Part shown: positions 1 to 64,000 of the stretch, in pieces | Layout: each line of letters begins with the position of its first letter | Position numbering within the stretch: position 1 is the stretch's first letter | DNA from: a virus | Taxonomy: Duplodnaviria > Caudoviricetes | IMG/VR virus record: IMGVR_UViG_3300021295_000001 | Length of the DNA stretch: 64,000 nt | Reading direction: 5' to 3' (one strand) | The notes under the pieces: model-generated | Told to the model about the DNA's origin: nothing | Database searches by the model: none | Seen by the model: only the letters and a program-made list of their open reading frames with translations | Translations under genes and position numbers: made by a program

Positions 1-2
1 TC

Positions 3-221
3 GCGTCCAAAGTCGTGAATGGCCAGATGAGAAGGGCGAAGCGCATTCTGAAGAAGAACACGCCCCTTATCAAATACATAGTGGAGAGGGCGCTCGCCAA
101 CGGAAACTGCCTTTCCGAGGACGCGATGGAGAGGACCTTGCTCGACTATGAGGACAGAAAGAAACAAATCGACGCCAAGATGAGGAAGGTCGGAATCGAC
201 GAGTTGGGGAGGGCCGAATGA
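3..221 (+). CDS. hypothetical protein (5' partial)
   Basis: frame open from the window start; ATGA overlap with next ORF. Confidence 0.6.
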   Translation, partial: ASKVVNGQMRRAKRILKKNTPLIKYIVERALANGNCLSEDAMERTLLDYEDRKKQIDAKMRKVGIDELGRAE

Positions 222-421
222 TGGGAACCAACGAATCACGCAGGCTGAATGAGAGCGCGCTTTCATTGCTCTACAAAATAGAGGCGTTCACGAAACGAGT
301 CGAGAAGGCCTGCGAAGAAGGCGAAATCACGCTCGAAGAGGCGTACGAATACCTAAAGAAGATAAACGGGGTAATCGACGTGGTCGCCGACAGGTTGGAC
401 GCATCCGAATACGCCTGCTAA
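218..421 (+). CDS. hypothetical protein
   Basis: GGGAGG RBS; stop codon lies inside the TGCTAAATT motif. Confidence 0.7.
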   Translation: MMGTNESRRLNESALSLLYKIEAFTKRVEKACEEGEITLEEAYEYLKKINGVIDVVADRLDASEYAC

Positions 422-424
422 ATT
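416..424 (+). promoter_or_regulatory. putative phage late promoter TGCTAAATT
   Basis: recurrent motif; upstream of the tRNA cluster. Confidence 0.55.
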
Positions 425-536
425 AGTGCCAAACGTCGGTAAACGAACGCGGTATAATATAACCGAACTACCCGACCTGATTGTGGCACGGGGTCCGAAA
501 CGACCCCACAAAAACTACAACATGGAGGAACGCGAA

Positions 537-755
537 ATGGTTAAAGCGGTTCTAATCGGAAAGCATCGTTACTCGCTCGCTTCGAGCGACCAGTCCTTTG
601 GGGAACAGGATTTCCTAACCAGGTCCGATGCCAAGAGGGAAATGAACAGGGCCCTCAAAGAACGCGGAATCAGCGTGGTCGAGGTCTATGACGACAAGCA
701 TGACAAGACCTACTGCTGTTCCGACGGCACCAAGTTCTTCATCAACAGGATTTGA
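537..755 (+). CDS. hypothetical protein
   Basis: GGAGG RBS, ATG 537, TATAAT at 453. Confidence 0.7.
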   Translation: MVKAVLIGKHRYSLASSDQSFGEQDFLTRSDAKREMNRALKERGISVVEVYDDKHDKTYCCSDGTKFFINRI

Positions 756-797
756 GGCCGATTGGGTGTCAACTACCCAACCAAAACAGTTGAAGAC

Positions 798-871
798 GCG
801 GTCGTCGTATAGGGGCAATACCTCACCCTTCCAAGGTGATGACATGGGTTCGATTCCCGTCAACCGCTCCA
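798..871 (+). tRNA. tRNA-Gly(TCC)
   Basis: cloverleaf; TCACC-CTTCCAA-GGTGA anticodon arm, GGTTCGATTCC T arm, encoded CCA. Confidence 0.92.
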
Positions 872-996
872 GGCCTCACGGCCACGTCAATGCGTATGTT
901 GACTGCTTCTTGATTGCACAAACGGAGACGTAAAAATCGGTAGTAGAGAATCAAGTATACCCCTCCAGCACGTGTGGTAAAGATGAGGGGTGATTT

Positions 997-1070
997 GCAG
1001 GAATAGGACAGTGGCAGTCCATCTGCTTGCCATGCAGACTACGTGGGTTCGATTCCCGCTTCCTGCTCCA
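997..1070 (+). tRNA. tRNA-Gly(GCC)
   Basis: TCTGC-TTGCCAT-GCAGA anticodon arm, T arm, CCA. Confidence 0.92.
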
Positions 1071-1073
1071 CAC

Positions 1074-1145
1074 GGCTATGACATCTGGCGATGAAGGGCG
1101 TCTCATACGCGCCCCAGCATGGTTCGAATCCATGCGTAGCCACCA
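1074..1145 (+). tRNA. tRNA-Met(CAT), elongator-like, degenerate D arm
   Basis: GGCTATG/CGTAGCC acceptor, GGCGT-CTCATAC-GCGCC anticodon arm, CCA. Confidence 0.8.
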
Positions 1146-1326
1146 GTGCCATCGGGGGACGCGTCCTCCGTAGAATACGGCTTGGCAACCCGTCGTCGAA
1201 GACAGGAAAAACGAGGTCGTAAATCTCAAACCCAGGCCATGGCGCTGTTGAGCCGAATTACCAGGGATGACAGACCCGAGCCGAGTTAGTCACGGCTAGG
1301 CGAAATCACGGCGCGGATTGGCCATT

Positions 1327-1403
1327 GGAACTATAGTTCAGTTGGTTAGAATGCCTGCCTGTCACGCAGGAGGTCGAGGGTTCGAGTCCCTCTGGTTCCG
1401 CCA
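1327..1403 (+). tRNA. tRNA-Asp(GTC)
   Basis: canonical cloverleaf, CCTGC-CTGTCAC-GCAGG, CCA. Confidence 0.95.
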
Positions 1404-1410
1404 TTTGCAT

Positions 1411-1485
1411 TGCCGAGGAGTGAAGCGGTCTCACATCAGGCTCATACCCTGATAATTCATGGTTCAACCCCATGCTCGGCGACCA
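1411..1485 (+). tRNA. tRNA-Met(CAT), initiator-like
   Basis: non-Watson-Crick 1:72 pair (T:G), TCAGG-CTCATAC-CCTGA arm, TTCAA T loop, CCA. Confidence 0.8.
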
Positions 1486-1532
1486 CACTTTTATACATCA
1501 TGCATATTTTCTTGCATACAGGAGGTTTAAGC

Positions 1533-1958
1533 ATGAAAGCAAGCGCTTACTTCGATTGGGACGTGGAACGCCAAAACGAACGGGACGGCGTCACCGTCGT
1601 GTGCGGACACATGGTCTGCAGGAGGCCCCATCAGTCGCAACTCTCATTGGCCGAGACGGCGCTCTTCAAAGCCATGAACGAAAGGTGGGACGTCGATTCC
1701 GCCCTAACCATGGGCGTGGCCACAACTCACGAGGACGACGAGTACGACGCCAAGACTGGTCGCGTCATCGCGTCAATCAGGGCCGAAGCCAACGCCAACA
1801 GGCAGTATAGGCAGAAGGTGGCCGAATTGCTTAAGAAGGCAGATGAGTTCGTCATGGCCGTCAAGAGGGACCTATGTCTTCTCGACGAGAGGCACAAGGC
1901 CCTCAAACACCAGTTGTCCGCCCACGCCGAGGAGAAGTCCGATGAGCAGGAAGGATAA
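1533..1958 (+). CDS. hypothetical protein
   Basis: AGGAGG RBS, ATG 1533. Confidence 0.8.
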   Translation: MKASAYFDWDVERQNERDGVTVVCGHMVCRRPHQSQLSLAETALFKAMNERWDVDSALTMGVATTHEDDEYDAKTGRVIASIRAEANANRQYRQKVAELLKKADEFVMAVKRDLCLLDERHKALKHQLSAHAEEKSDEQEG

Positions 1959-2145
1959 ACTGGAAATCGCCAACCTTCGAAACAACGTCGAGTGGCTGAT
2001 GGGGGACATCGCGCAACTCAATCGCAGGCTCTCGAAGGCATTGGCCGAGAACGATTTCCTGACCGACGAACTGACAAGGCTCAGGGAGGAACTGGCCTCC
2101 AAGGACAAGGAACTGAAGAGGACGAGGTTCCGAATCAGGAACTGA
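1942..2145 (+). CDS. coiled-coil hypothetical protein
   Basis: GAGGAG RBS, heptad pattern. Confidence 0.65.
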   Translation: MSRKDKLEIANLRNNVEWLMGDIAQLNRRLSKALAENDFLTDELTRLREELASKDKELKRTRFRIRN

Positions 2146-2205
2146 GCCAACCATGGACACCCGCGCACAAACGACCAAACAAGCGCGGTCAACAGGAGGT
2201 GTCTC

Positions 2206-2301
2206 ATGAAGGCTATCAGGGAATTGGCAAAGCGCATAGTCGACTTGTTCAAACTGGATGACGAGTTCATCAGGATATACGGATACAGCAACGACAACTG
2301 A
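2206..2301 (+). CDS. small hypothetical protein (31 aa)
   Basis: AGGAGGT RBS, ATG 2206 (MKAIRELAKR...). Confidence 0.55.
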   Translation: MKAIRELAKRIVDLFKLDDEFIRIYGYSNDN

Positions 2302-2345
2302 CGCTTGCGGGGACGACGTCAACACCCCAAAACGCTGACGGAATC

Positions 2346-2436
2346 GGAGGGATGGCCGAGTGGCTGAAGGCGACGGTCTTGAAAACCGTAACGCACCGCA
2401 AGGGCGTCCTGGGTTCGAATCCCAGCCCCTCCGCCA
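2346..2436 (+). tRNA. tRNA-Ser(TGA)
   Basis: long variable arm, ACGGT-CTTGAAA-ACCGT, GCCA end. Confidence 0.95.
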
Positions 2437-2444
2437 AAAAAATT

Positions 2445-2518
2445 CGAGAGGTCTGTCAATGGTAGGCTTGCTGGTTTGGAACCAGGGAACGTGGGTCCGA
2501 TTCCCGCCCTCTCGACCA
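2445..2518 (+). tRNA. tRNA-Pro(TGG)
   Basis: CGAGAGG/CCTCTCG acceptor, CTGG-TTTGGAA-CCAG, CCA. Confidence 0.85.
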
Positions 2519-2524
2519 CATTTA

Positions 2525-2599
2525 GCCTCCGTAGTTCAACGGAAAGAACGGTTGCCTTGTAAGCATCAAATCCCTGTTCGACTCAGAGTGGAGGCACCA
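2525..2599 (+). tRNA. tRNA-Thr(TGT)
   Basis: GCCTCC/GGAGGC acceptor, CTTGTAA anticodon loop, CCA. Confidence 0.88.
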
Positions 2600-2607
2600 T
2601 AACAATC

Positions 2608-2682
2608 GGTCCCTTATTTCAGCGGGAGAATACCTCCTTTACACGGAGGGGGTCGGCGGTTCGAATCCGTCAGGGACCACCA
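2608..2682 (+). tRNA. tRNA-Val(TAC)
   Basis: CCTCC-TTTACAC-GGAGG arm, T arm, CCA. Confidence 0.92.
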
Positions 2683-2700
2683 CACGAAGGAGACTCAGGC

Positions 2701-3243
2701 ATGGAAGGCGACAAATACATATTCCTGGACGTGGACGGCGTCCTCAACGACGAGGCGGACCTATATCGGCTTTCCCAACATGAGGAGGAGGCGCCGACTG
2801 GGGGCCTTTCGCACCTACGCGAACTGCGCAGAATCGTGGACGCGACCGACGCCAAGGTCGTGCTGTCGTCCAGTTGGAGGATTAGCGTGAGGGGCACGGA
2901 CGACGTCATGGCGTCGTTGGCCATGGTGGGGTTGCACCTCGACGGATTGACGCCAGAGGGCGCCCCAGTAGAGTTCATAAGGCGCAAATACCCCGACGTC
3001 GTGCTGAGGGATACGCGCAAGTCCCCTTGGGACAACTTCGAGGAACGCACGGACGACAGGGGCGCCGAGATAGCGTCTTGGCTCCACGCAAGGGGCGGTT
3101 GCTCCAACTACGTGGTGTTGGACGACGACGTGCACGACATACTCCCATACCACAAAGGGCACGTGGTGCAGACGAGTTACGCCAACGGATTGGATGCCAC
3201 GAAGGCCGACGAGGCCATAAGGATACTGAACGGAAATGAATAA
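2701..3243 (+). CDS. HAD-family phosphatase (Swiss-army-knife RNA repair HAD type)
   Basis: IFLDVDGVLN, VVLSSSWR, RGAEIASWL and YVVLDD motifs. Confidence 0.85.
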   Translation: MEGDKYIFLDVDGVLNDEADLYRLSQHEEEAPTGGLSHLRELRRIVDATDAKVVLSSSWRISVRGTDDVMASLAMVGLHLDGLTPEGAPVEFIRRKYPDVVLRDTRKSPWDNFEERTDDRGAEIASWLHARGGCSNYVVLDDDVHDILPYHKGHVVQTSYANGLDATKADEAIRILNGNE

Positions 3244-3967
3244 CCATCTATATGATTCGTTCGCCCATTGGACGATGACGGACGGTGAGCACAAGAACTC
3301 CGTGTGGGTCTATTCCGACCCCCATTTCGCGGACCCCGAGTCCATGCACTTCAGGGGCGAGGAATACCTCGGCGACGACTGGCAGGTCAAGCGCATCAAC
3401 GGGAAGGTCAGGAAGAACGACACCATAATCATATTGGGGGACGTGGGCGACCCATCGTTCGTTAAGCGCCTTCGCGGGCACAAGGTCCTCGTCATGGGGA
3501 ACCACGACAAAGGCGCGTCCAACTACAGGAGGCGCTCGCTGATTGCATACGCGGAAGGATACGACGAGAAACGCTTCTCGACGGAGTGGGACGCATGGAG
3601 GAAGACGGACTTCGGCACCGACGGCGAGCGTGTGGAAGCCATGTTCGAACTGGTGTCCAAGAGGTCCTTCGTCGACAACGGCCTGTTCGATGAGGTGTAC
3701 GAGGGGCCGATAATGGTGAACGACAGGCTCATCCTGTCGCACGAACCCATCGAGCCGTTGCCAGAGACGATGTTCAACGTCCACGGCCACGTCCACGGCG
3801 GTTCCCACGACACTGGCCCAAGGACCTTGAACGTCTGCGCGGAAAGCATAGGTTACGAACCAGTAAGCCTCACTTCCATGTTGGCCAAGGGGTTGCTGAG
3901 CGACGTGCCCTCACCTCACAGGGTCACGATAGACAAAGCCAAGGAAAGGAAGTCCAAATGCAAATGA
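3236..3967 (+). CDS. calcineurin-like metallophosphoesterase
   Basis: SDPH, LGD, GNHD, LSHEP and HGHVH motifs. Confidence 0.88.
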   Translation: MNNHLYDSFAHWTMTDGEHKNSVWVYSDPHFADPESMHFRGEEYLGDDWQVKRINGKVRKNDTIIILGDVGDPSFVKRLRGHKVLVMGNHDKGASNYRRRSLIAYAEGYDEKRFSTEWDAWRKTDFGTDGERVEAMFELVSKRSFVDNGLFDEVYEGPIMVNDRLILSHEPIEPLPETMFNVHGHVHGGSHDTGPRTLNVCAESIGYEPVSLTSMLAKGLLSDVPSPHRVTIDKAKERKSKCK

Positions 3968-4200
3968 CAAGCGACAAAAGGCTGGGGCCAATCACCAAGG
4001 CGAGGTGCTGGCGCTACATCAAGAGGACGCTCAGGGAGGCCATGGGCTCGGACGAGGGCGCGTTGGCGCTCGTCAGTTCCCTCATACTGGCGATGAACGA
4101 GGCCCGCGACAAACTCGGGGACTCCTTCGAATGCAGGAGCATGACCCTCACGCTGAACGACTTCTTCGACTTCGACGTGTTCAGGGGGGACGCGAAGTGA
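3964..4200 (+). CDS. hypothetical protein
   Basis: ATGA-coupled ORF. Confidence 0.65.
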   Translation: MTSDKRLGPITKARCWRYIKRTLREAMGSDEGALALVSSLILAMNEARDKLGDSFECRSMTLTLNDFFDFDVFRGDAK

Positions 4201-4330
4201 GCGCTCGGAAACCCAAATGCATGCGCTCGGTTCCCGCCCTGCCCCGTCGGCCGTGGGGGAAATCGGGCCTCCCAGCCTGCTAAACTCCGATGGAAAGCGA
4301 TTTGTGCACGGTGCACAATTCCCCATGAGC

Positions 4331-4404
4331 GGGACTTTAGTCCAAAGGCAGAACGCTCGGCCGTTAACCGAATGACGGTGGTTCGAATCCACCAAGTCCC
4401 GCCA
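4331..4404 (+). tRNA. tRNA-Asn(GTT)
   Basis: GGGACTT/AAGTCCC acceptor, CCGTTAA loop (C at position 33), GCCA. Confidence 0.85.
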
Positions 4405-49201: not shown

Positions 49202-49212
49202 ATCTTTCCCCC

Positions 49213-49808: not shown

Positions 49809-49809
49809 G

Positions 49810-50247: not shown

Positions 50248-50267
50248 CGTCTTTCCCCTTTCTCCGT

Positions 50268-51133: not shown

Positions 51134-51307
51134 ATGATTACATCCGTTGACCAAAGCACATACGAATTCAGGGGACTCAGCACCGACACGAAGCCGACCG
51201 AGAACGTCGGGAACGGCTCCCTGTTCTTCGAGATGGACACCTCGAAGTGGTACATGTTCGACGCATCCGCCAACACGTGGATGGAAATCACGTGGAGGGG
51301 AATCTAA
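51134..51307 (+). CDS. small virion-associated protein (57 aa, absent from the ORF track)
   Basis: TGCTAAATT at 51098, AAGGAG RBS; GLSTDTKPT..V.NGSLF.EMDT.K.Y.FD motif. Confidence 0.75.
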   Translation: MITSVDQSTYEFRGLSTDTKPTENVGNGSLFFEMDTSKWYMFDASANTWMEITWRGI

Positions 51308-51347
51308 GGCGCGCGCACCGTTCTCGCGATAGAGTGAGGCACGATAG

Positions 51348-52025
51348 ATGAAACCATCGGAATTGTTCTACAAATGCGCCTTCGAGGTCAAATACGAGAC
51401 CGTGGGCAACGACGTGAACTACGCGTTCATCGAGGATGGTAGCACGTTGTACCTGTTCCTGCAAGGAAGTTCGAGTGACGTCGATTGGCGACGGAATTTC
51501 ACGTTCCCAGCCCGCCCGTACAAGGACATGGGCATCCCGTATCTCGTCCACCGCGGGTTCTTGGAGGCGTGGAAGGAACTCGAGGACGTAGTCATCGCCA
51601 AGGTGACGGAACGCGTCCCGTATGGCGAGTGGAAGTACAAATATGACCACGTCGTCGTCATCGGCTATTCCCACGGTTCCAGTTTGGCATTCTTTGCAAC
51701 AGAGTGCATATGGTATCACAGAGAAGATTTGAGGGACGGAGGGTTTGAGACATACGCCTTTGAATCACCTAGAGTGTTTGCTGGGTTTTGGATTCCAAAA
51801 AAATTAAGGGAGCGTTGGAACAACATGACTGTGTTCGTCAACGGAAGTGACATAGTAACCCATTGTCCGCCTCGGATATTTGGATTTTGTCACGCAGGAC
51901 ACATAGTGCATATAAAAGGAGATGTTTCTTTGGTAGAAGGAAGGCTACCGAAATGCATCAAGTACCATTATCCACAAGTAGTTGAGGATGGCCTTAAAAA
52001 GTACGAAAAAGACAAAGACTGCTAA
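51348..52025 (+). CDS. class 3 lipase (alpha/beta hydrolase)
   Basis: QGS....DW, VHRGF, GYSHG nucleophile elbow, FESPRV, DIVTHCPP and C-terminal His. Confidence 0.85.
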   Translation: MKPSELFYKCAFEVKYETVGNDVNYAFIEDGSTLYLFLQGSSSDVDWRRNFTFPARPYKDMGIPYLVHRGFLEAWKELEDVVIAKVTERVPYGEWKYKYDHVVVIGYSHGSSLAFFATECIWYHREDLRDGGFETYAFESPRVFAGFWIPKKLRERWNNMTVFVNGSDIVTHCPPRIFGFCHAGHIVHIKGDVSLVEGRLPKCIKYHYPQVVEDGLKKYEKDKDC

Positions 52026-52120
52026 ATTGTATAGATTGCTCCTCTGATGGTGACGCGTCTGTTGGAGAAATCCGACACACCTTCAGGGGAGGAATCTTCA
52101 GGGACGAATTAAAGCAAAAA

Positions 52121-53071
52121 TTGTTGGGTCTAGGGTGTTTCGTTGACAACGAATACCTAGACCTTTATTGTTCTTTGATAAACGATAACAGAGCCACAAA
52201 AAGGGAAAAGTTCAAAACGCAAAGCCACCACATAATACCGAAATGCTGTTTTTCTTGCCTAAAGTTGCCGATAGACGATTCATCAGAAAACAAAGTCAAT
52301 CTCCTGTATTCAAAACATATCCTTGCTCACTATTATTTGTGTTTGTGTTCAGATAGCACCAATAAACAATTAAAATACAAGTTGGAGAATTCATTTCTTC
52401 ATCTTGTATCAGGCGATGCCAACAACAAAAAACGCATTGAAAATTATGAGGTGGATGAATTTGAACAATTTCAAGAAATATATGAGGAGTGGAAAAGTCT
52501 AAATAGTTCACTTAAATTGGGGAAATCTTCTTGGAACAAAGGTCTTACAAAATCGACAGATGCTCGTGTTGCAAAATACTCTAAACCTCGTAACTTTTCT
52601 AAAGAGCATAATAAAAATCTAAGTAAAGCAATAAAAGAATACTTCAAAACTCATGTAGCGCCAGCAAAAGGGAGAAAGTTATCGGACGAAGCAAAACGCA
52701 AACTATCTGAAGCGCACAAAGGTAAATATTATATGCCAAAGGACCCAGAGGCGCATTCAAAGAAAATGTCAGAAAATTCAAAGAGATACTGGGAAACTCA
52801 TCCCGAAAGAATTAAAGCCCTCATAGAATACAACAAATCTCGTGTTATATCAGAAGAAACACGACGCAAAATTGCCTTGGGCCAAAAGAGACAAGAAGTT
52901 GTAATGATAGACGATGACGGGAATGTGATACATAATTTTATATCCATCAAAGATGCTGCTAGATATTTCAACATAACGAATTGTGCCGTTTCTTGGAGAA
53001 TAAAGAAAAGAAAGGAAATTGAGCCAGGAAGATACTTAGCATTCAAACAGGATACAGATGTCAGAAAATAA
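52121..53071 (+). mobile_element. free-standing HNH homing endonuclease with NUMOD3/NUMOD1-like repeats (start uncertain)
   Basis: HHIIPKC...N.V.L....H..AH; WNKGLT, KGRKLSDEAKRKLSEAHKG, SEETRRKI, F.SIKDAARYF; AT-rich. Confidence 0.85.
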
Positions 53072-53080
53072 AAACAAAAG

Positions 53081-53377
53081 AAGTTTGAAGGCGGTCTCGA
53101 GGGCTACGGATTCGAGGCACCGAGGGTCTTCTTCGGATGGCACGTCAAAAAGGAACTGAGGGAGCGCTGGGCTTCGTTCAGGGTGTTCCGCAACAAGAAG
53201 GACATCGTTACGCACATGCCCCCGATTCTATTCGGGTTCAGGCACGTGGGAGAGGTCGTTAGGATTGGCCAGGGCCTCCCAGACGACGACTACCATTGGC
53301 CGAAGTGCGTGGGCGCCCATTACCCAGACAAGGTATACGAATCGCTCAAGGCATACGAGGCCGAGGGAAACGAATGA
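53081..53377 (+). pseudogene. displaced C-terminal half of the class 3 lipase
   Basis: GGLEGYGFEAPRVF...LRERW...DIVTHMPP..FGF.H.G...PKC...HYP is collinear with the lipase C-terminus. Confidence 0.85.
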
Positions 53378-53549
53378 TTCGACGGGGCCGAAAGACCCCG
53401 TTTTCGTTTCGCTGTATAATATGATTGCGGCTTAAAGCGCACGGTTTCTATTCGTTTTCAAAATTCGAAAAACGCATCGTGCGTGCGCACATACACGCGA
53501 TGTATTCGTCGTTTGCTAAATTCAGAAGAAACGGTTGGAAGGTTTTTCG

Positions 53550-56500
53550 ATGTCCGAAAGCGCAAAGTACTATGATTCTAATGGCAGGCGCCTGACGGAT
53601 GGGCAGGCCAAGTTTTTCTGGGATTCTGCCGTGAGGGACGGCCAAGGAAGGCTGTTGGTGTGCTATCATGGTTCCAACGAATCGTTTTCTGAGTTTGACC
53701 CGTCAAAAGCGTCAGGCGGTTTCTTCGGAAAGGGATTCTATTTCTCGAAAGAAGAGGAATATGCATCTGATTACGGAACATCGGTAGGCGCGTATTACCT
53801 GAACATAGAGAACCCATTCTATTATGATGAGTCGACCATGGAAGACGTCAGGAAAATCCTTGATTTGGAAATCAAAAAGGGAAAAATCGACGGTTACGAC
53901 GAAGAGGAGATGCCACGATTAGAACAAGAATGGTATGACAAAGGGTTGGACCTCATAGACGACGTCTTGGCGGAATTGGCTGGTGGTTACACGGGTGACA
54001 CGTTTTCGGAAGACATCATGCAACTTGGATATGATGGGATACTCGTCGACTACGGAAGGGAGATAATCGTGTTCAGCCCGAACCAGATTAAGCGCGTGGA
54101 CAACACAAACCCGACCGATTCCGATAGATTGGATGAGAAAACAACGCAAAACGTAATCTTTTTCGGCAATCCGACCAAGCGCAATGACATGCGCGCCACC
54201 GAATCATTTGACGAGGCTTACGAGCCGATGAAGACGGGCAAGGCATACAAGGTCTTCCGCGTGAAGAACGGGAAACTATATCCTCCCATGGTGGCCAACG
54301 CTGGCGGAAGGGACACGCCGATTGGGGTGTGGCTCGACGCAGAGGAAGGCGAGTTCGCTGGCCTTTCCAAGACTGGCAGACCCCAAGTCAAGTCGACTGG
54401 CTCTGGCACGCTCTCATACAGGCCTGGGTGGCACCTCGGCGATTTGCCACGCGCCCCTCAGTTCGACAGGACCAACAAGGAGACTGGCGAGAAGGAATTC
54501 CCGAGCGATTTCGTTTGGGCCGAGTGCGACTACGCCATGGACGTCGACTATCAGCCAGAGGCGGACGCCCGTGGGTACGAGAGGACCAAGATGGGCGACG
54601 ACGGCAAGGTCGTGACCTACAAGAGCGACAAATACCAACATTCCCTCGCGGGACTTCCGAAACTCCCAGCCAAGGGTTATTACAGATACAGGACCAACCC
54701 GAACCCCGAAACCGTGCCATGGGTCATAACTGGCTCGATAAGGGTGAACAGGTTGCTTTCCGACGACGAGGTGAACGCCATCCTGAAGGACAACGGAGTG
54801 GCCCCGATACACAGGCAGGGCGGTGACAAGACGCTCGCCGAACTCGGCCTTTCCGAATCCCTGTCCGAGGCATCTGGCTCGGGTCTTGACGAACAGGCGT
54901 CGCGACGCACGCTGACATCGAATGATTTCCTCGGTTGGGTCGAGGCGCTGTCCGACAAAGACGACATATCATATAACTCCCCCGATTCCATCGAATACTC
55001 GGACGTGTTGTTGCTGAGCCCCGAAGGGGACATGATTGACTGCGGGGAATACGACACCCACGAGTCTTTCGTGGACGCCGTGATGGAGACGAATGAGGCC
55101 AAGGAGGCCAAGGCGCGCGTCGTTTGGGACGGGAGAATAACCGATTACCTTTTGGAGAAACTCGGCTACATCACGCTTAACAGTGGCCAAGGATACGGCG
55201 ACGACAGGTTGAAGATAGTCATATGCAGAAAGCCGAGCGCTCAGCAAATCGACATCCTCAAGGAGTGGCTTGGAAACCATTTCGCGGACAACGGTCCCAC
55301 GTTGCATGTTTATACGCCAAACGACCATAAGGAATTCGACCCAACGTATTTCGACAAGGAAGACGTGACGAAAGGCATAATCAAGGCGTTTTCTTCTGGT
55401 AGAGGGGTGTTCACCGAGGCCACTGGCTCGCACCTGAAGGGCGAGTACGACTACGGCGACGTGCATTCGTACCTCGAATCCGAATTCGGGTTTTCGGACG
55501 ACATCCCCGAGGTCATGCCACAACTCATAGACAAAGACGGGCGCTTCTGCTCCATGAGCCCAAAATCCAAGCCGAACGCGCCCATGTTCCATGGGGAGAT
55601 ACTCCAAGCCATGGAGGACGACGGAATCGTGGCCACTGGCGATTCCCTTTTGGACAAGGTGAACCTAACCAACACCGACCTGTTCCAACGGCTCGGGTTC
55701 ATACGTTGCAACCGCGGGAGCGAGGGATACCACTACATGGCGTTGCCAGACGCCCCCACCGCGAACCAGATGAGGGCCCTCAAGAGGTACGTGCTCGATT
55801 CCTATTCCGACAGGCGCGCCCTGATTGAGATAAGCGGTCGTGGCGAATACGTGAACTTCATGGTCAACGACGACACCTATCCGATATGCGGGCACGTGGA
55901 CGACCTCATGAGGATGTTGGTCAGATACGCCAACGGCAGGCCCCTGAGGACGAAAACGGAGGCCAGGTTGTCCGAGGAATGGCTCGACGACGAGCACGGA
56001 ATCTGGATGACCGAGAGCCAATACGAGGTCGCCAACATGATGAGGAACTCCAAACACTCCCTCAGGATACTCTGGGACAGGAACCTCAAACTGTTCTTCG
56101 TGTGCGACGCGGACCTCTACATACACAGGGACATGATTGAGCAGGCCGTGGAGGACGGGCTGTACAACGGCGTCATAAGCCGTTGGGGTATAGACTCGTA
56201 CGTCGACGACTACGGCAGGAACGTGATATACTACATCTTCGCGCCGAAGGGCCTCGAGAAGGAGACCTACGGGGCGGACGTGAACGAGGACGGCTACGAG
56301 GGTAAATACATATACCCATTCGGGACCGTGACCACGCGTAGCGACGACAGGTACAAGTCCTCACCGCTCGCCAAGGCGCTCGGGAAGTACGAGGCCCATT
56401 ACGTGCAGGACGGGTGGGTCGACGATTACACGCCGAAGGTCGTACAGGTAGAGTCGATGCTCACCGAGGTGTATCCGAACGAGGGCGAATCGAAGAAGGA

Positions 56501-57506
56501 CTTCGTGTCCCGCTTCATGTCCGTTACCAAGGACGAATACCCAGACGTAAAACAGCGATACGCCGTGGCTCTTTCCTATTGGGACAGGGCCAAACGCAAA
56601 AACGAGTCGTTGCTCACCGAGAAGAAGCGCGGTGAACTCATAAGCCAGTCCAAGAAGGGCGCGGACTATTCGAAGAACAACCAATCCAAAGGCAGGAACA
56701 GGTGGGAGCGCAGGATGCATTCCCGCGTGGCGAACAGCGTCAGGGACTACGACAGGATAGACATGAACGCGCTTTGGAAGGCCGACATACTGGAGTTCGG
56801 CGTGAAGGTGCACGGCGAGACCGACGACTACGTGGTCACGATAACGTTCGAGAAGATACTCGACAACCTGAGGCAGGAGGTCCGCTCCAACGGCAACAAG
56901 ATGGAGTTCAAATGCGTGCTCAGGGCGCTAATGAGGTCGTTCAACGACGACGACGTCTTCATCAGTTGCTCCTGTCCCGACTGGAAATACAGGTTTTCCT
57001 ACCAAAGCACGATTGGGCGCTACAACAGCGGTCTGCCAGAACTCAGGCCGAGCGACATCACCAACCCCAACAACGACAAGGGCGCTGGGTGCAAGCACTC
57101 GTTGCTCGTCCTGTCCAACACGGACTGGATGGTCAAGATAGCGTCCGTCATAAACAACTACGCGAGGTACTGCCAGAAGAACATGCAGAAGAACTACGCG
57201 GACTACATATTCCCGAAGATTTACGGGATGCCCTACAAGAAGGCCGTGCAACTGTCCCTGTTCGACGACATGGACCCCGATAAGAGCGGTCTGTTGCCGA
57301 GCGACCAGAAGGCCCTGTCCGACGTCATAGAACTCGGCATGAGGGGCAAGGACGAGAAGGGGCGCTTCGAGAAGGGCAACGACTACAGGTTCGCGAAGAC
57401 CAAGCCCGAGGTTGGGACCGACCAAGAGGACGAGAACCCGCTCGAACTCAGATTCGACAACAACAGGCGCAAGACGCTCAGGGGACCAGAGGAGGAAGAA
57501 GGATGA
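53550..57506 (+). CDS. large polyvalent protein: ART-like domain, several cargo domains and C-terminal SWIM zinc finger
   Basis: YHGS..F..FD...GKGFYFS...YLNIENP..GYDGI....EIIVFSPNQIK; CSCPDW...CKH; TGCTAAATT at 53514. Confidence 0.8.
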   Translation: MSESAKYYDSNGRRLTDGQAKFFWDSAVRDGQGRLLVCYHGSNESFSEFDPSKASGGFFGKGFYFSKEEEYASDYGTSVGAYYLNIENPFYYDESTMEDVRKILDLEIKKGKIDGYDEEEMPRLEQEWYDKGLDLIDDVLAELAGGYTGDTFSEDIMQLGYDGILVDYGREIIVFSPNQIKRVDNTNPTDSDRLDEKTTQNVIFFGNPTKRNDMRATESFDEAYEPMKTGKAYKVFRVKNGKLYPPMVANAGGRDTPIGVWLDAEEGEFAGLSKTGRPQVKSTGSGTLSYRPGWHLGDLPRAPQFDRTNKETGEKEFPSDFVWAECDYAMDVDYQPEADARGYERTKMGDDGKVVTYKSDKYQHSLAGLPKLPAKGYYRYRTNPNPETVPWVITGSIRVNRLLSDDEVNAILKDNGVAPIHRQGGDKTLAELGLSESLSEASGSGLDEQASRRTLTSNDFLGWVEALSDKDDISYNSPDSIEYSDVLLLSPEGDMIDCGEYDTHESFVDAVMETNEAKEAKARVVWDGRITDYLLEKLGYITLNSGQGYGDDRLKIVICRKPSAQQIDILKEWLGNHFADNGPTLHVYTPNDHKEFDPTYFDKEDVTKGIIKAFSSGRGVFTEATGSHLKGEYDYGDVHSYLESEFGFSDDIPEVMPQLIDKDGRFCSMSPKSKPNAPMFHGEILQAMEDDGIVATGDSLLDKVNLTNTDLFQRLGFIRCNRGSEGYHYMALPDAPTANQMRALKRYVLDSYSDRRALIEISGRGEYVNFMVNDDTYPICGHVDDLMRMLVRYANGRPLRTKTEARLSEEWLDDEHGIWMTESQYEVANMMRNSKHSLRILWDRNLKLFFVCDADLYIHRDMIEQAVEDGLYNGVISRWGIDSYVDDYGRNVIYYIFAPKGLEKETYGADVNEDGYEGKYIYPFGTVTTRSDDRYKSSPLAKALGKYEAHYVQDGWVDDYTPKVVQVESMLTEVYPNEGESKKDFVSRFMSVTKDEYPDVKQRYAVALSYWDRAKRKNESLLTEKKRGELISQSKKGADYSKNNQSKGRNRWERRMHSRVANSVRDYDRIDMNALWKADILEFGVKVHGETDDYVVTITFEKILDNLRQEVRSNGNKMEFKCVLRALMRSFNDDDVFISCSCPDWKYRFSYQSTIGRYNSGLPELRPSDITNPNNDKGAGCKHSLLVLSNTDWMVKIASVINNYARYCQKNMQKNYADYIFPKIYGMPYKKAVQLSLFDDMDPDKSGLLPSDQKALSDVIELGMRGKDEKGRFEKGNDYRFAKTKPEVGTDQEDENPLELRFDNNRRKTLRGPEEEEG

Positions 57507-57871
57507 TTGACATAACCGACAACGGGATAGTATCCATCGTGGCGGGGGACACCGTCGAATTCGGCATAATGCTGAACGACGGCGACAAGATATTCCCCGA
57601 ATGGTACACGCTCAACGAGGGCGACGAACTGCTTTTCGGCATAATGGAGCCGAACGCGCCGTTCGAGCGCTCTTTGGTCAAGAAGACGCTCGGCGTCGAG
57701 GACGTCAACGTGTCTGGAGGGGTGACCGTGAGGCTCAACCACATGGACACCGCGCTCCTGCTCCCTGGGCTCTACTACTACGAGGTGAAACTCGTCAGGA
57801 TGCCCATCGGGGCGAACCAGCCGTACGTGGACACCGTGGTGCCCCGCAGAAGGCTTTACATCAACCACTGA
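57503..57871 (+). CDS. BppU-N-like baseplate adaptor
   Basis: GDT..F.I, V.L...DT..L.PG.YYYEVKL and VDTVVP pattern. Confidence 0.7.
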   Translation: MIDITDNGIVSIVAGDTVEFGIMLNDGDKIFPEWYTLNEGDELLFGIMEPNAPFERSLVKKTLGVEDVNVSGGVTVRLNHMDTALLLPGLYYYEVKLVRMPIGANQPYVDTVVPRRRLYINH

Positions 57872-57961
57872 TTCGGAACGGCGCCTATAAGGCGCTTTTC
57901 CTTCGCGTTCCGTTACGGCGTATGGGACAGTCCTTTGCTAAATTACACGAGTAAGGGATTT

Positions 57962-58495
57962 ATGATGATACTTAACGCTGTTGTGGAGATACCTGGATGG
58001 GCCATCACGCTCGTATCGGTGGCGGCCAGCGCCATCGTCTCTGGGTTCTTCGGGTTCATGATTAAGCACGGTCTTGAGAAGTACTTCCAGAAGCGCGACC
58101 AAGAGAAGGACGAGCAGAAAACGAAATTGAAGGAAGCGGAGCGGATAATGGGCGAGCAGGAGAACGAGAGGTTGGTCCAGACAATCGGCAAGATGATTGA
58201 CGACAAGGTGTCGCCGATGTCGAAGAAACTGGACGCGATAGGCGACGGCACATTGTCCTCTTTGAGGAACGACATACTGACGTGCTATTACAAATGCGTC
58301 GACAAGGGCTATAGGAACGACTACGACTACACGAACGTGCACGACATGTACGAATCCTATTACAACCTGAACGGGAACTCGTTCGTGGCGGACGTCATGA
58401 AGAGGTTCGACGAACTCCCGACCAAAGAGGACTGGGAGAAGAAGCACAAAAGGAAGAGGCAACCGCTCAGGGAAACGCAACCGAAGGCCAAGTGA
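57962..58495 (+). CDS. holin-like membrane protein
   Basis: N-terminal TM segment; LRNDI...Y....KGY...MYE.Y..LNGN motif; TGCTAAATT at 57936. Confidence 0.65.
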   Translation: MMILNAVVEIPGWAITLVSVAASAIVSGFFGFMIKHGLEKYFQKRDQEKDEQKTKLKEAERIMGEQENERLVQTIGKMIDDKVSPMSKKLDAIGDGTLSSLRNDILTCYYKCVDKGYRNDYDYTNVHDMYESYYNLNGNSFVADVMKRFDELPTKEDWEKKHKRKRQPLRETQPKAK

Positions 58496-58503
58496 GGTAA
58501 CGC

Positions 58504-61026
58504 ATGGAAGGATACGTATACGAGTTGAAGGGCGAACAGGGCAAGTCCAGGTTCGACGAACTCCAAGAACAGATAGACTCCCTCGACACGAGGGTCGACG
58601 CGTTGGAGGACGTCGTCGTAACTTTCGTCACGCTCGACACCGCGCAGACCATAACTGGCGACAAGGAGATAACTGGGAACGTACACATAGACGGCGCCCA
58701 AGGAAAAGCCATAACCCTCGGGCAATCCGCCGATAACCCCCGCGTGACCATAGACCAGTGGAGCGGTGTCGTCGGCTTCACCGACACGGAAGGCGGATTC
58801 AACGAATTCAATCCCTGCGACTCCGACTTCGGGGCGATACCATCGTTCGACAGGTTGGGGGTTTACGACCTGAACGCCAACGGTTTGTACTCTGGCGACT
58901 TAGAGGTCGCCGACAGCGCGACGATAGAGAACCTCCGCGTCAAAACAGTCAAGGCTGGCAACACCACGGTCAAGGGACAGAACGTATACAACTTCGAGGA
59001 ACCCTGCACGTTCAACTTCGGCATAACAAGCAGTGGTGAGACTGAGTATTATGGCGTCTTTAATACATATGACCCAGATTATGATGGCCCTCGGTTTAAT
59101 TTCCTTGCAATTGGCGGGTTAACAGTTGAAAGCAGGTTAACAGTTGAAAGCAATTTATATATTCCATCTACGATTCGCGCATATACGCCTAATGTAGGCA
59201 CATATACAATAACATTCCCCACGAAGAATGGCACGGTCGCTTTAACATCGGATTTGTATGATTATCTGCCTTTGACAGGTGGCACAATAGTATCTAGAAT
59301 TGCTGAGAATACTGATGAGAATGTCATTTCAAATCGTGAAATAACAATCAGAAGCAACGACCGCAATCACTATTCCACATTGGACAAAAATGGTGTGACT
59401 GTGTCTACACTTGGTTCATATGGTTCGACAAAAGTACAATTGGATGGCGTATTGACAACTTATGGTAGATTTGGAGAATCTGGTCATAAATACGCATCTA
59501 ATGGCATACACAAAATACTCAACAACGTTGAATTTACTTATACATTCCCATCGGAAAGCGGAATGCTCGCCTTAGGCGAACTGAAGACGACGTGGTCGGA
59601 ATTGAAAGCGTTGCGTGATGCAAGCAAGTTGGTGCCTGGAAGACAATACAGGATTACCGACTATGTCTGCACTACCGCTCAGGCAAACACCTCTTCCGCT
59701 GGGCATCAATTCGACATCATCGTTGTCGCTGACAGCGTAAACAAATTGAATGAGGTCGCACGCGCATGCCTTCACGAAGGCGATACGTATTTCGCCAACA
59801 GCAAACTGGAGGCATGGCAACTTTGGTATTGCTTGGACAACGACGACACTCGATTTGAATGGGCCGACACAAGTTACATTGAAATCGTCGGCACGATAGT
59901 GGCGAACGATGTTAGTTGGGACAGATATGAGGCTGGCGACTTCCCATCAGGCCGACATCCGTATGCGTGGAAATCCTCGGATGGAACAAGAGTCTACACC
60001 GATTCGACGACACCTTCCGTTTCAGACGAAGCATACACGTCAAGTTCCCCGAGTCCCAGTTACGCGATTACGGAAATCGTCATGGGAAACAAATACACAG
60101 GCAAAGGTGTAATTTACCATATGGTTGACGAGTTCGACAATGACGTTCCTTATGACTTTAAGAACATATTGTTTACGAAATCGGGTAAATATACAAATGC
60201 ATACACTTTTAGTTATACAGAAGACAGTGTGATTAAAGATGCTTCATTATCATTAAGTAATGGCTGTTATGGTAACAGTATGAAAGAATATCTTTTAGGC
60301 GGTAAACAACAACTTAATTTTAATGTATTTTATTCATCATCTGTTAGTGTCAGTTCTCTTATGTGTTATTGCAATACCTTTGGTTATGATTGCTACAACA
60401 ACACATTTAGAGAAGGTTGCTCTTGTAACACCTTCATCTCTAATTGCCGTAATAACATCTTCGGCGAGAGTTGCTCCTATAACACTTTTAATGGGAGTTG
60501 CTTTAACAACACCTTTGACAACGATTGCTTTAATAATATTTTCGATTCTTATTGCTCTAGCAATCTCTTTGGTCAGAATTGCACAAACAATACTTTCGGT
60601 GCTTATTGCACCAGCAATACATTCGGTGATGATTGCTTCGACAATACTTTCGGCTCTAGTTGCTCTAGTAACGTCTTTAGTAGTAATTGCCCTTACAACA
60701 CATTCGGTTGTAATTGCGACCATAATATCTTAGGTGATACTTGCTCCAACAACACCTTTGGCAATAATTGCACCTATAACACATTTGGAGAATCATCTTC
60801 GCCAATTAATTACTGTCGAGGCATTCTTTTAGACAATCTTTGTAGTTATTTAGAGATTATTTCTACCGACACTTCGGCGACATCAAGCAACTGGCTACAG
60901 AACATCCATATCCATCTCGGTGTGGCTGGTTCATCATCAGACCGCAAAACCATCACAATACCCGACCGCAATCTTCAATACACAACCGACGTCTACCCGA
61001 CAGGCTCAACGGAGATGTTCATATAA
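58504..61026 (+). CDS. tail fibre/spike with Cys-rich NTFG beta-helix repeats
   Basis: TLDTAQTITGDK, FP.K.GT.ALTSD, W.EL..LRD...LVPG..YRITDY and tandem 11-aa C..NTFG repeats. Confidence 0.8.
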   Translation: MEGYVYELKGEQGKSRFDELQEQIDSLDTRVDALEDVVVTFVTLDTAQTITGDKEITGNVHIDGAQGKAITLGQSADNPRVTIDQWSGVVGFTDTEGGFNEFNPCDSDFGAIPSFDRLGVYDLNANGLYSGDLEVADSATIENLRVKTVKAGNTTVKGQNVYNFEEPCTFNFGITSSGETEYYGVFNTYDPDYDGPRFNFLAIGGLTVESRLTVESNLYIPSTIRAYTPNVGTYTITFPTKNGTVALTSDLYDYLPLTGGTIVSRIAENTDENVISNREITIRSNDRNHYSTLDKNGVTVSTLGSYGSTKVQLDGVLTTYGRFGESGHKYASNGIHKILNNVEFTYTFPSESGMLALGELKTTWSELKALRDASKLVPGRQYRITDYVCTTAQANTSSAGHQFDIIVVADSVNKLNEVARACLHEGDTYFANSKLEAWQLWYCLDNDDTRFEWADTSYIEIVGTIVANDVSWDRYEAGDFPSGRHPYAWKSSDGTRVYTDSTTPSVSDEAYTSSSPSPSYAITEIVMGNKYTGKGVIYHMVDEFDNDVPYDFKNILFTKSGKYTNAYTFSYTEDSVIKDASLSLSNGCYGNSMKEYLLGGKQQLNFNVFYSSSVSVSSLMCYCNTFGYDCYNNTFREGCSCNTFISNCRNNIFGESCSYNTFNGSCFNNTFDNDCFNNIFDSYCSSNLFGQNCTNNTFGAYCTSNTFGDDCFDNTFGSSCSSNVFSSNCPYNTFGCNCDHNILGDTCSNNTFGNNCTYNTFGESSSPINYCRGILLDNLCSYLEIISTDTSATSSNWLQNIHIHLGVAGSSSDRKTITIPDRNLQYTTDVYPTGSTEMFI

Positions 61027-61041
61027 AGGAGGGGATGACAC

Positions 61042-61455
61042 ATGGCAGACAAAGTAATAAACGGTAGCCTGGACGTAACGGGCGAAATTTCCCAAAACGG
61101 CACCACGCTTGAGCCTGGGACGAAGTGGTATCGCCACCGCATCACGGTCGGGGATGCAAACGGTGGCCCCGTTGTCCTTGACGCGATTTCCACTTACCCC
61201 ACGCCTCTCACCACGTTCTCTCAATTTCGGGGGATGCTGTGGTGGCATTACCTTCCCATGAGCGAAACGCCCCATACCAATGAACATATATTGTTATACG
61301 TACCCGTCGGTGTTTACGTCGCGCCATATTCCACTGAAGATGAACAAGGGAATCGCAAAGACTACATTAGATATTATGGACCCACTGATAGCGAATTGCA
61401 GTTAATTGAACTCAACTCCAGCGACTTCCGCTCGGACTTAGTGACGGCCCTGTAG
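61042..61455 (+). CDS. small tail-fibre-associated protein
   Basis: AAGGAGG RBS; INGSLDVTG.I and K.YRH.I motifs. Confidence 0.65.
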   Translation: MADKVINGSLDVTGEISQNGTTLEPGTKWYRHRITVGDANGGPVVLDAISTYPTPLTTFSQFRGMLWWHYLPMSETPHTNEHILLYVPVGVYVAPYSTEDEQGNRKDYIRYYGPTDSELQLIELNSSDFRSDLVTAL

Positions 61456-61528
61456 CCAAAGGCATACGCATAAAGGCAACGTCATGCTTACGTTGCTAAA
61501 ATGATTAGGAGAAGGAGGCATTGAAAAG

Positions 61529-62056
61529 ATGTCAAAATACGTAGACACGCTAACAACATTCATAGACCGTCAGAGGACGCTTTATGGGCATAAGGCCGAG
61601 GAACAGCCCGTAGGCCCGCAACCCGTCATAACCATAGACGGCGTCGATTATTACCAGAAGACCGAATTCCACCTCGACCAGTTGGGCGAGCAGGGATACG
61701 GCGACATCTACGACCTCATATCTGGCGAGAGGACCGCGCACTTCCCGATGTCGGACCCCGATATAGGAGAAGACGCGCAGGAGCACAACAGCGTGCTCGT
61801 TTCGAAGGACGAGGTGTCGATGTGCATATTCAACGTCGGACGCTCCAAGGAGAAGTCACCAGCGCAGTTCATACTGGCGTCGGACAACCCCGAAATGGAG
61901 CCCAACTACGTGTCGCACGCATTCGAGTTGGTCGATTCCATAGAGGACGGTGACAGCACCCACATCTGCCTCCCGCAGTGCTCAGCCTTCTACGGCTGGC
62001 AGTCCGAGGACAGGAACACGTTCATAGCGTATTACAACCTCAAGGACGAGCAATAA
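61529..62056 (+). CDS. late hypothetical protein, paralog A
   Basis: TGCTAAAAT upstream; MSKYVDTLTTFIDRQRTLYG. Confidence 0.75.
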   Translation: MSKYVDTLTTFIDRQRTLYGHKAEEQPVGPQPVITIDGVDYYQKTEFHLDQLGEQGYGDIYDLISGERTAHFPMSDPDIGEDAQEHNSVLVSKDEVSMCIFNVGRSKEKSPAQFILASDNPEMEPNYVSHAFELVDSIEDGDSTHICLPQCSAFYGWQSEDRNTFIAYYNLKDEQ

Positions 62057-62094
62057 AAACCAAAGGCAATAAAACATCATAAAGGAGAATCAAA

Positions 62095-62673
62095 ATGGCC
62101 AAATACGTAGACACACTCATCACCTTCATCGACAGGCAAAGGACCCTTTACGGTCTCAAAAAAGAGGAAGAGCCAGTCGGACCCGTTCCCGTCATAACCA
62201 TCGACGGGGTCGATTACTTCAACAAATGCGAATTCGACCTCACTGCGTTGCAGGGACAGTCAGCGGGACGCTTCTACGATATTCTGAGTGGTGAAGGAAT
62301 TCTGGTACCTCCCTCCATTTCGGATATATCGGAGGCAGCGATTATGGCGAAGACATTCCCCGTCGAGCAAGGTAATGGGAAGGTACGCTCCATCGTTTAC
62401 GGCCCTGGGGACGGGGCGGAGAGCGAATACGGCAGTATCCTCGACATCGTCATAGCGTCGGAGGTCCCTGGCCAGTTCCCCGTCAATTACCAGTCCAGGG
62501 CGTTCACTTGCGTGGACACTTGGGCGGAAGCGGACGCCACGAGCAAGATATTCCTCCCCACCTGCTCCGCGTTCTATGGCATGCTATCCGAGGACGGCAA
62601 GACATTCACCGCGTACTTCAACCTGAAGGAAGAACAGGAACAAGAGCCTCAGTCTGGGGGAATCTCGTTATAG
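62095..62673 (+). CDS. late hypothetical protein, paralog B
   Basis: MAKYVDTLITFIDRQRTLYG; shared LP.CSAFYG tail. Confidence 0.75.
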   Translation: MAKYVDTLITFIDRQRTLYGLKKEEEPVGPVPVITIDGVDYFNKCEFDLTALQGQSAGRFYDILSGEGILVPPSISDISEAAIMAKTFPVEQGNGKVRSIVYGPGDGAESEYGSILDIVIASEVPGQFPVNYQSRAFTCVDTWAEADATSKIFLPTCSAFYGMLSEDGKTFTAYFNLKEEQEQEPQSGGISL

Positions 62674-62748
62674 CAAAAACCCGAATAACGGGAAGGGACA
62701 CAACGGTCCGAAAGGGCCGTTTTCCTTTCCTTGTGTATAATAACGTAG

Positions 62749-63714
62749 ATGATTGTTTTCAACGTTTTCTCTAACCGCAAGCGCATAGGCGAAATCCCAG
62801 AGGTAGACGTCCTGATATGGACGGCGTCGCTCCTAAGGTACCGCTCGTTCGGGTACAGGACCAAACTCTACTGCACGAGGAAGGACATACCGTTCCTCGA
62901 CAAATGGGGCCTCAGGAGGCTGTACGACGTGATAGACGACGACACGCTTTCCGCAATCGGGCCGTTGGGGATAGACGAATCGAAATTCTGGTCGACTGGC
63001 AAGTTGACGGCCGTGAACTACCAAAAACACGACGTTTGGGAACAGGCGGTGTATTCCGACGTGGACGTGCTGATGAGGAAGCCGTTCGACCTGTCCCACG
63101 ACTGCTTGGTCTGGTCGCCAGAGGGGAAGGACGATGACGACGGGGGCATATACGTCCCGTGGGATGCCCTCAGCGTCCCAGACGGCTACGCGATGCCAGA
63201 GCACATAAGGGCGACGGACGACGCCTACAACTGCGGTGTGCTGTGGTTCGGCGGTGACAAGGGGCGCCAAGCGGTGGGCGATTGGTTCCGCGACTACGAG
63301 GACTTCGCCACGCTCAACCCGTGCGAGATAGTCGGTGGCGAGGACGTGGCCGATTTGCGCACCAACGACGCCGTGTGGGCCTGCAACGCCGAGCAGAGGT
63401 TCCTGAAGGCCACGCTGGACCGCGAAGGCTTGGACGTTGGGTTCGTGATGCCCGAGAAGGGCAACGGTCTGTCCGCTGACGGGGACCACTATTACTACTA
63501 CAGGGTCGTGTGGAGGTTCTTCAAGGAGAGCGGGCTCGCGATGAACTCCGACGCGTTGCGCGTGCTCAACGCGACGGTCAAGGAATGCTTGGAGACGATA
63601 AGGGACGCGGAACCAGGGCTGTACGAGTTCTGGCAGACCGTGCCGTGGGCGAGGAACTTCCTTGACGTGGTGGATTTGGGGCAAGGCCTGTTCCCGATTT
63701 CTTCCTATGTATGA
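62749..63714 (+). CDS. glycosyltransferase-like (GT-A DxD) protein
   Basis: FWS.GKL, YSDVDV and YNCGV..EQ motifs; possibly leaderless (TATAAT at 62736). Confidence 0.6.
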   Translation: MIVFNVFSNRKRIGEIPEVDVLIWTASLLRYRSFGYRTKLYCTRKDIPFLDKWGLRRLYDVIDDDTLSAIGPLGIDESKFWSTGKLTAVNYQKHDVWEQAVYSDVDVLMRKPFDLSHDCLVWSPEGKDDDDGGIYVPWDALSVPDGYAMPEHIRATDDAYNCGVLWFGGDKGRQAVGDWFRDYEDFATLNPCEIVGGEDVADLRTNDAVWACNAEQRFLKATLDREGLDVGFVMPEKGNGLSADGDHYYYYRVVWRFFKESGLAMNSDALRVLNATVKECLETIRDAEPGLYEFWQTVPWARNFLDVVDLGQGLFPISSYV

Positions 63715-63777
63715 GGGGTCCGACGGGGCCCCTTTTCGCATGCTAAATTACGTGACGTATACGAAGGAGGGAACCGC

Positions 63778-64000
63778 ATGGACTGGACTCAGGGAATAAT
63801 CGCTTTGCTCATAGGCCTCTGCGGTCTCGTCGGCGCTGGCGTCGCCGTTTGGTTCGCCGTCAAGGCGAAGGTCTCCGAGGTCAAGGGAAAGTCCCTTGCC
63901 GAACAGTGGGCCTTCGTGATGGAGGTCGCGGATTCCGCGATGAAGGAAGCCGAGGCCACCGCAAAGAAGGGCAAAGGCAAGAAGGAGATGGTCATACAGG
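63778..64000 (+). CDS. holin (LL-H-like), 3' partial
   Basis: TGCTAAATT at 63741, AAGGAGG RBS; TM segment followed by AM.EAE....G..KKE.V. Confidence 0.7.
   Translation, partial: MDWTQGIIALLIGLCGLVGAGVAVWFAVKAKVSEVKGKSLAEQWAFVMEVADSAMKEAEATAKKGKGKKEMVIQ

Follow-up and report, generated by a model that had tools for sequence, protein, structure and literature searches.

Absence of GATC, AGCT and CCGG and near absence of GCNGC in a large tailed phage, most probably through host restriction

T4-like phages protect their DNA by self-methylation or by base hypermodification (Dam methylase, hydroxymethylcytosine). Restriction-site avoidance in phages was reportedly treated in earlier work by Sharp in 1986 and by Karlin in 1992; Staphylococcus phage K and its relatives are said to be without GATC (Sau3AI) sites, and Bacillus phages are likewise said to be without the sites of their hosts. 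For non-temperate double-stranded DNA (dsDNA) phages, avoidance of the sites of orthodox Type II systems is established, and in a survey of ~4,000 viral genomes roughly one in ten had eliminated such sites completely or almost completely (Rusinov et al. 2018, PMC6286503). Here we analyze a stretch of 64,000 nucleotides (the window) of the IMG/VR virus record IMGVR_UViG_3300021295_000001 (Duplodnaviria; Caudoviricetes), in which the palindromes GATC, AGCT and CCGG are absent and a fourth word, GCNGC, is nearly so.

The initial annotation of this sequence had claimed that GATC, AGCT and CCGG are avoided completely, and exhaustive counting bears this out:

Positions 1 to 64000, no strand assigned: GATC, AGCT and CCGG 0 copies each, GCNGC 22, ATCGAT 0 (exhaustive counts, motif scan and codon shuffle).

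Base composition predicts 245 copies of GATC, 245 of AGCT and 334 of CCGG in the window. Against a maximal-order Markov expectation, the check that the annotation had proposed for 4- to 6-mers, 179, 105 and 183 copies were expected, so that zero stands against 105 to 183 and nowhere near expectation. The strictest null model held the proteins and the per-gene codon usage fixed and permuted only synonymous codons within genes; under it, coding DNA was expected to carry 165 GATC, 161 AGCT and 158 CCGG sites (~480 in total), and the lowest counts across 100 runs were 139, 137 and 129, respectively. The purge persists beyond the window, in 8.8 kb of upstream and 9.7 kb of downstream sequence from this contig, giving 0/0/0 copies over 82,497 bases.

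Other short palindromes were not affected in this way. GGCC (329 copies), GCGC (319), TCGA (478) and CATG (288) are abundant in the window, as had been claimed for them, and at or above expectation; GTAC, which had also been listed as abundant, is present in 175 copies but is mildly to moderately depleted (169 in coding DNA versus 269 by synonymous shuffle, z = -8.4). Across 1,360 palindromic and degenerate motifs, the strongest depletion was that of CCGG, GATC, GCNGC and AGCT, followed by CCWGG (86 versus 143 expected, a moderate depletion) and ATCGAT (0 versus 13 to 16 expected). No non-palindromic 5-mer in the scan of 5- and 6-mers came near the depletion of the purged palindromes. The avoided words are thus short palindromes such as orthodox Type II enzymes recognize, rather than arbitrary k-mers. 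No regional mosaicism was detected in the depletion of CCWGG or GTAC, which is uniform along the 82 kb.

The purge is visible codon by codon. All nine adjacent-codon contexts able to spell a purged word are empty, with 0 of 126 to 398 opportunities each:

ATC after a G-ending codon, 0 of 224 (elsewhere ATC makes up 55% of Ile codons).
GAT before C, 0 of 151.
xGA before TCN, 0 of 126.
AGC before T, 0 of 274.
AAG, GAG or CAG (Lys, Glu, Gln) before CTN, 0 of 164.
GCT after A, 0 of 142.
CCG before G, 0 of 202.
NCC before GGN, 0 of 272.
CGG after C, 0 of 398.

The context-dependent codon switching described previously therefore holds without exception at these junctions. The replacement spellings are themselves biased. 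Where NCC is forbidden before GGN, NCT is used in 72% of cases, against a baseline share of 12% (the T share of non-C alternatives before other G-starting codons, where T is the rarest third base). Similarly, AGT before T accounts for 20% versus 8%, and ATT after G for 38% versus 24%. The NCT bias fits single-step escape by C-to-T change that keeps the same decoding tRNA as NCC.

Site removal acts on DNA as such, in coding DNA, non-coding DNA and RNA genes alike. The 5.25 kb of non-coding DNA contains 0 sites of the three tetramers versus 62 expected. The small leftward genes are purged in the same way as the rightward blocks at 1-39025 and 51134-64000, which contain large open reading frames (ORFs). 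The AT-rich segments, previously noted to comply, do so throughout: islands with a GC content below 0.46, totaling 15.1 kb, contain 0 sites versus 145 expected. Features bearing on this point are as follows:

39062 to 50992, minus strand: small leftward genes, with the same purge as the rightward blocks.
42101 to 45350, minus strand: the most extensive of the AT-rich islands (GC 0.44), lying among the small leftward genes; 0 versus ~31 expected tetramers.
51601 to 53300, plus strand: AT-rich island (GC 0.41) spanning the 3' part of a class-3 lipase gene and a NUMOD1/NUMOD3 homing-endonuclease gene; 0 versus ~15 expected.
58851 to 61150, plus strand: AT-rich island (GC 0.43) within a gene for an 840-aa tail-fibre-like protein; 0 versus ~22 expected.

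The homing-endonuclease island is putatively mobile DNA, and it too obeys the purge. A homologue search with the 840-aa tail-fibre-like protein returned only unnamed homologues.

Two IMG/VR contigs are the nearest relatives of this phage and provide the comparisons that follow: its sister G001 (149 kb, 45% GC, portal protein ~65% identical) and G002 (IMGVR_UViG_3300028048_000057; loci L031-L039; 161 kb, 29% GC). Both are 91 to 99% complete.

The initial annotation had named three purged words; those three stand, but there are at least four, since GCNGC is purged as well, and ATCGAT is also absent. The 22 GCNGC sites in the window compare with 334 expected by composition and 152 by synonymous shuffling, and both halves of the degenerate word are low (GCWGC, 9; GCSGC, 13). 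This depletion stands out because phage genomes usually have GCNGC in excess (PMC6286503). Most of the residue (16 of 22 sites) consists of in-frame GCN-GCN, that is, Ala-Ala, which synonymous change is unable to remove; five or six removable sites are left versus ~136 expected by shuffling. Codon-pair inspection placed two of the residual sites in one short run:

36020 to 36027, plus strand: two overlapping residual GCNGC sites in an in-frame Ala-Ala-Ala run.

No flanking-context rule was found for the surviving GCNGC sites; 6 of the 22 overlap GGCC, versus ~3.5 expected.

Ala-Ala is always spelled GCNGCN, and therefore the GCNGC purge has cost the proteins about four fifths of their Ala-Ala pairs. 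Of all 400 dipeptides, none is more depleted in the window than Ala-Ala, with 18 occurrences versus 100 expected by within-protein shuffling (ratio 0.18, z = -8.8). In Erwinia phage Bue1, a control with 50% GC in which GCNGC is over-represented, the observed-to-expected ratio for Ala-Ala is 1.13. Aligned columns of 34 orthologue pairs contain 25 Ala-Ala pairs in sister G001 versus 6 here, and 5 of those 6 survivors are conserved in the sister, compared with 11 to 39% of other Ala-containing pairs, although the numbers are small. These figures fit selection removing the pair wherever the protein tolerated it. The relatives are intermediate in Ala-Ala content (observed-to-expected ratios of 0.62 in G001 and 0.48 in G002). 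Their spelling is distinctive: 87 of 97 Ala-Ala pairs in G001 have a GCS first codon, dodging GCWGC, and those in G002 have only GCW first codons.

The tRNA genes are subject to the same purge:

798 to 4404, plus strand: tRNA cluster with zero purged words (9 genes by ARAGORN; Rfam).
2608 to 2682, plus strand: tRNA-Val(UAC) with the D-arm TATTTCA...GAAT (comparison with the sister phage and G002).

GATC, AGCT and CCGG are all at 0 in the 9 to 10 tRNA genes, and the altered D-arm strings quoted in the initial annotation as evidence of AGCT removal are present. Not all of them support that argument. In tRNA-Val(UAC), sister G001 has the canonical TAGCTCA...GAGC, and G002, which is almost without AGCT (3 copies), has the compensated pair TAACTCA...GAGT; judged by these relatives, tRNA-Val(UAC) is the clearest case of a tRNA rewritten to shed AGCT. 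The Asp and Thr examples do not count as evidence. A D-arm with TAGTTCA is usual in bacterial tRNA-Asp, and in the AGCT-tolerating sister, where four other tRNAs retain TAGCTCA, tRNA-Thr(UGU) already reads TAGTTCA. Some gene calls in these clusters differ between programs or are unusual. A tRNA at 2445-2515 (plus strand) was detected by Rfam only (41.9 bits); its anticodon, read by eye, is UGG (Pro) and its T-loop GTCCGAT. The ARAGORN tRNA-Met at 1074-1145 (plus strand) falls below the Rfam threshold. In G001, ARAGORN called within the tRNA cluster at 105613-105688 (L028) a tRNA that it left untyped, with a four-base anticodon (caaa), which could be a frameshift-suppressor-like tRNA or a miscall.

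The set of purged words differs among relatives. Observed versus expected counts in G001 are 0/557 for GATC, 21/210 for GCWGC, 6/95 for CYCGRG and 0/28 for AGCGCT, and CCGG and AGCT occur 97 and 209 times. In G002, the counts are 0/400 for GATC and 3/400 for AGCT, together with a general loss of CpG-containing words. Every CpG palindrome in G002 is depleted (ACGT, 11/400; TCGA, 15/400; CGCG, 0/63; GCGC, 0/63), a pattern suggestive of general CpG avoidance in addition to the loss of GATC and AGCT. A portal-based search recovered ~38 further clade members; some of the clade loci show no purge at all, and at the other extreme seven tetramers are fully purged. Larger purged sets were seen at portal-clade loci L045, L057, L058, L065 and L066; L045 (21 kb) has zero GATC, AGCT, CCGG, CATG, TCGA, ACGT, GCGC and CGCG, and a single copy of GGCC. 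Loci L046, L049, L050, L075, L078 and L079 show no purge. In a quick tree built from the portal protein only, the phage analyzed here is sister to G001 with support of 100; one large subclade is characterized by loss of GATC, which most of the other subclade does not share, and the remaining words vary between close relatives. Since purged sets differ between relatives and always consist of palindromes, their cause would be external and changeable, as host restriction-modification (RM) repertoires are. We infer that the avoided set follows the host and not the descent of the phage.

Among the 80 window proteins, searches with PADLOC, NCBIfam and Pfam gave no match to a DNA methyltransferase, a restriction nuclease or any known anti-restriction family. 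Neither G001 nor G002 has the three main methyltransferase families (PF00145, PF02086 and PF01555) or the DpnII and MutH/Sau3AI nuclease families; both contigs also have zero GATC. Neither in the window proteins nor in these two relatives, then, was there a phage-encoded methyltransferase of the kind that self-protecting methylation would call for.

Taking these observations together, selection by host Type II restriction on a phage with unmasked DNA is very probably the cause of the purge. This reading is supported because palindromes are purged at every synonymous opportunity, non-coding DNA and tRNA genes included, because the purged sets differ between relatives, and because no methyltransferase was found. 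As the initial annotation had proposed, restriction selection is the best-supported interpretation; what changes is the number of words (at least four) and the weight of two of its four tRNA examples. Under this model, the phage DNA would be unmodified, or at least not self-methylated, and would escape host Type II restriction by carrying no targets. Any mutation creating GATC, AGCT or CCGG would be removed by selection, because one site suffices for incoming DNA to be cut. GCNGC would be selected against likewise, leaving Ala-Ala mainly at conserved positions. Read from the purged words, the predicted host or hosts would encode Sau3AI/MboI/DpnII-like (GATC), AluI-like (AGCT), HpaII/MspI-like (CCGG) and Fnu4HI-like (GCNGC) systems, and perhaps also a ClaI-like (ATCGAT) system; pressure on CCWGG and GTAC may have been weaker or intermittent. 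That restriction enzymes are the selective agent, and these enzymes in particular, is what the sequence pattern suggests.

Several points weigh against this interpretation. The host searches described below named no host, and hence no cognate enzyme or methylation motif. The analysis covered 82.5 kb of the phage genome, and a methyltransferase or nuclease gene could lie in the remaining ~68 kb; most window proteins are without a recognizable family, and restriction nucleases are hard to spot by sequence. Finally, the preferred escape spellings are products of C-to-T change, as in the NCT bias before GGN described above, a pattern to which deamination of methylated cytosine could also have contributed.

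A variant of restriction selection invokes another enzyme class, methylation-dependent nucleases (Type IIM or Type IV). In this scenario, the methyltransferases of one host mark GATC, GCNGC, CCGG and AGCT, and the next host cuts the marked DNA by DpnI/BisI-like or Mrr/McrBC-like enzymes, so that a phage without the sites would go unmarked. Such selection would leave exactly the same footprint in the sequence. GATC, GCNGC and GCWGC are among the Type IIM sites listed by the published survey, in which GATC was under-represented in all 46 phages with hosts encoding such enzymes (PMC6286503). However, AGCT and CCGG are classic targets of orthodox Type II enzymes, and no sequence feature separates the two classes. 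We consider it unlikely that methylation-dependent enzymes were the agents.

It is very unlikely that the phage itself encodes 4-base cutters that shred host DNA and is protected from them by having no sites. Degradation of host DNA is known from T4-like phages, the majority of the 80 window proteins are without a known family, and such genes could also lie in the same ~68 kb. The family searches described above nevertheless matched no restriction nuclease in the window, and the DpnII and MutH/Sau3AI families are missing from both zero-GATC relatives. The differing sets in sister phages would moreover require that several phage nucleases had been gained and lost repeatedly.

Mutational decay, in which host cytosine methylation raises C-to-T change and wears the words away, much as CpG is lost in vertebrates, is highly improbable. 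It would account for the T-rich escape spellings at all three positions listed above. That preference is equally explained under restriction selection, as NCT is one transition from NCC and is read by the same tRNA. A mutational bias gives depletion, not an exact zero from ~480 coding sites and from 82.5 kb. The product tetramers are barely enriched (CTGG/CCAG, 1.13; AACT/AGTT, 1.07; range, 1.07 to 1.27), and the loss reaches tRNA stems and has removed Ala-Ala against protein constraint. Lastly, a sequencing or assembly artifact such as site-dependent read loss deserves practically no credence: it is refuted by 100%-identical contigs recovered both from an ENA assembly (ERZ27247027) and, over 2 to 15 kb, from three SRA runs that are independent of it (SRR8558254, SRR8558149 and SRR7030984), codon-level compensation is coherent with all reading frames intact, and related JGI contigs have other purged sets.

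The phage contig is 150,563 bases long and has the highest GC content of its clade (54%). The window contains 80-odd genes, arranged as a rightward block, then small leftward genes (39-51 kb), then a further rightward block, together with the tRNA cluster and several ORFs of >1,000 aa. Genes for a T4-type portal and an S77 prohead protease follow closely downstream of the window. General family scans of the 80 window proteins matched no integrase family. This is probably a virulent, T4-like phage of ~150 kb. Other genes in and around the window include one for a 1,318-aa protein (53550-57506, plus strand) with an N-terminal ART-PolyVal ADP-ribosyltransferase domain, which matches several PHROGs of unknown function. 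Upstream of the window (L080, 6199-9004) are a peptide deformylase gene and a gene for a 476-aa FtsH-like protein (AAA and Peptidase_M41), an unusual phage cargo. Downstream (L020, 14206-16662), an 818-aa gene with MJ0330_N and Intein_splicing matches directly precedes the T4-type portal and may be an intein-containing head-module gene.

Megablast of 20 kb of the window against cultured phages gave no nucleotide match, and neither did a search of IMG/VR with an exact 42-mer. Many clade members come from IMG sample identifiers given as sheep rumen metagenomes in the Hungate1000 paper. A single-protein portal scan of genome contigs gave no match, and a look-up of a nicotinamidase-like protein yielded no host clue. 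An alignment-based contig scan found two distant clade members in metagenome-assembled genomes (MAGs) labelled Lachnospiraceae; these are too remote, and rely too heavily on binning, for a host of this phage to be named from them.

If host restriction is indeed the cause, the window represents a clean and unusually complete natural case of restriction-site avoidance. The mechanism itself is textbook; distinctive here are the completeness of the purge, its cost at the protein level, the rewriting of tRNA-Val and the changes of set between sisters. Restriction pressure would then be able to outweigh tRNA stem conventions and mild protein constraints. We lean, if only slightly, toward the broader view that host restriction is a force on protein sequence, with a Fnu4HI-like system having removed ~80% of Ala-Ala pairs and with sets that change between sister phages of a single T4-like clade from rumen and gut metagenomes, most of it from sheep rumen. 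The purged set predicts that the host methylates or cuts GATC, AGCT, CCGG and GCNGC. Each phage would be a readable barcode of the restriction repertoire of its host, which could be matched to metagenomic methylomes for host assignment, and the clade, with many phages that have different purged sets, would be usable for such matching. Use of the purged set as a host fingerprint, as proposed at the outset, is plausible. Literature searches found no paper on the source runs or assembly, and one for published work on rumen restriction-enzyme repertoires gave nothing useful.

With the self-modifying T4-like phages, this phage would share the goal of escaping restriction but reach it by opposite means, its sites being missing rather than masked. 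As is said of Staphylococcus phage K, a 4-base site is totally absent from a large, probably virulent myovirus through codon choice; unlike that cultured phage with its known cognate enzyme, more words are purged here and the enzymes are deduced from them. The hosts of the phages in the published survey were known, whereas here the enzymes are predicted from the purged words alone. As in those cases, short palindromic words of the orthodox Type II kind have been eliminated from a large, probably virulent dsDNA phage (PMC6286503); unlike in them, four words have been purged together, three of them to exact zero over at least 82 kb.

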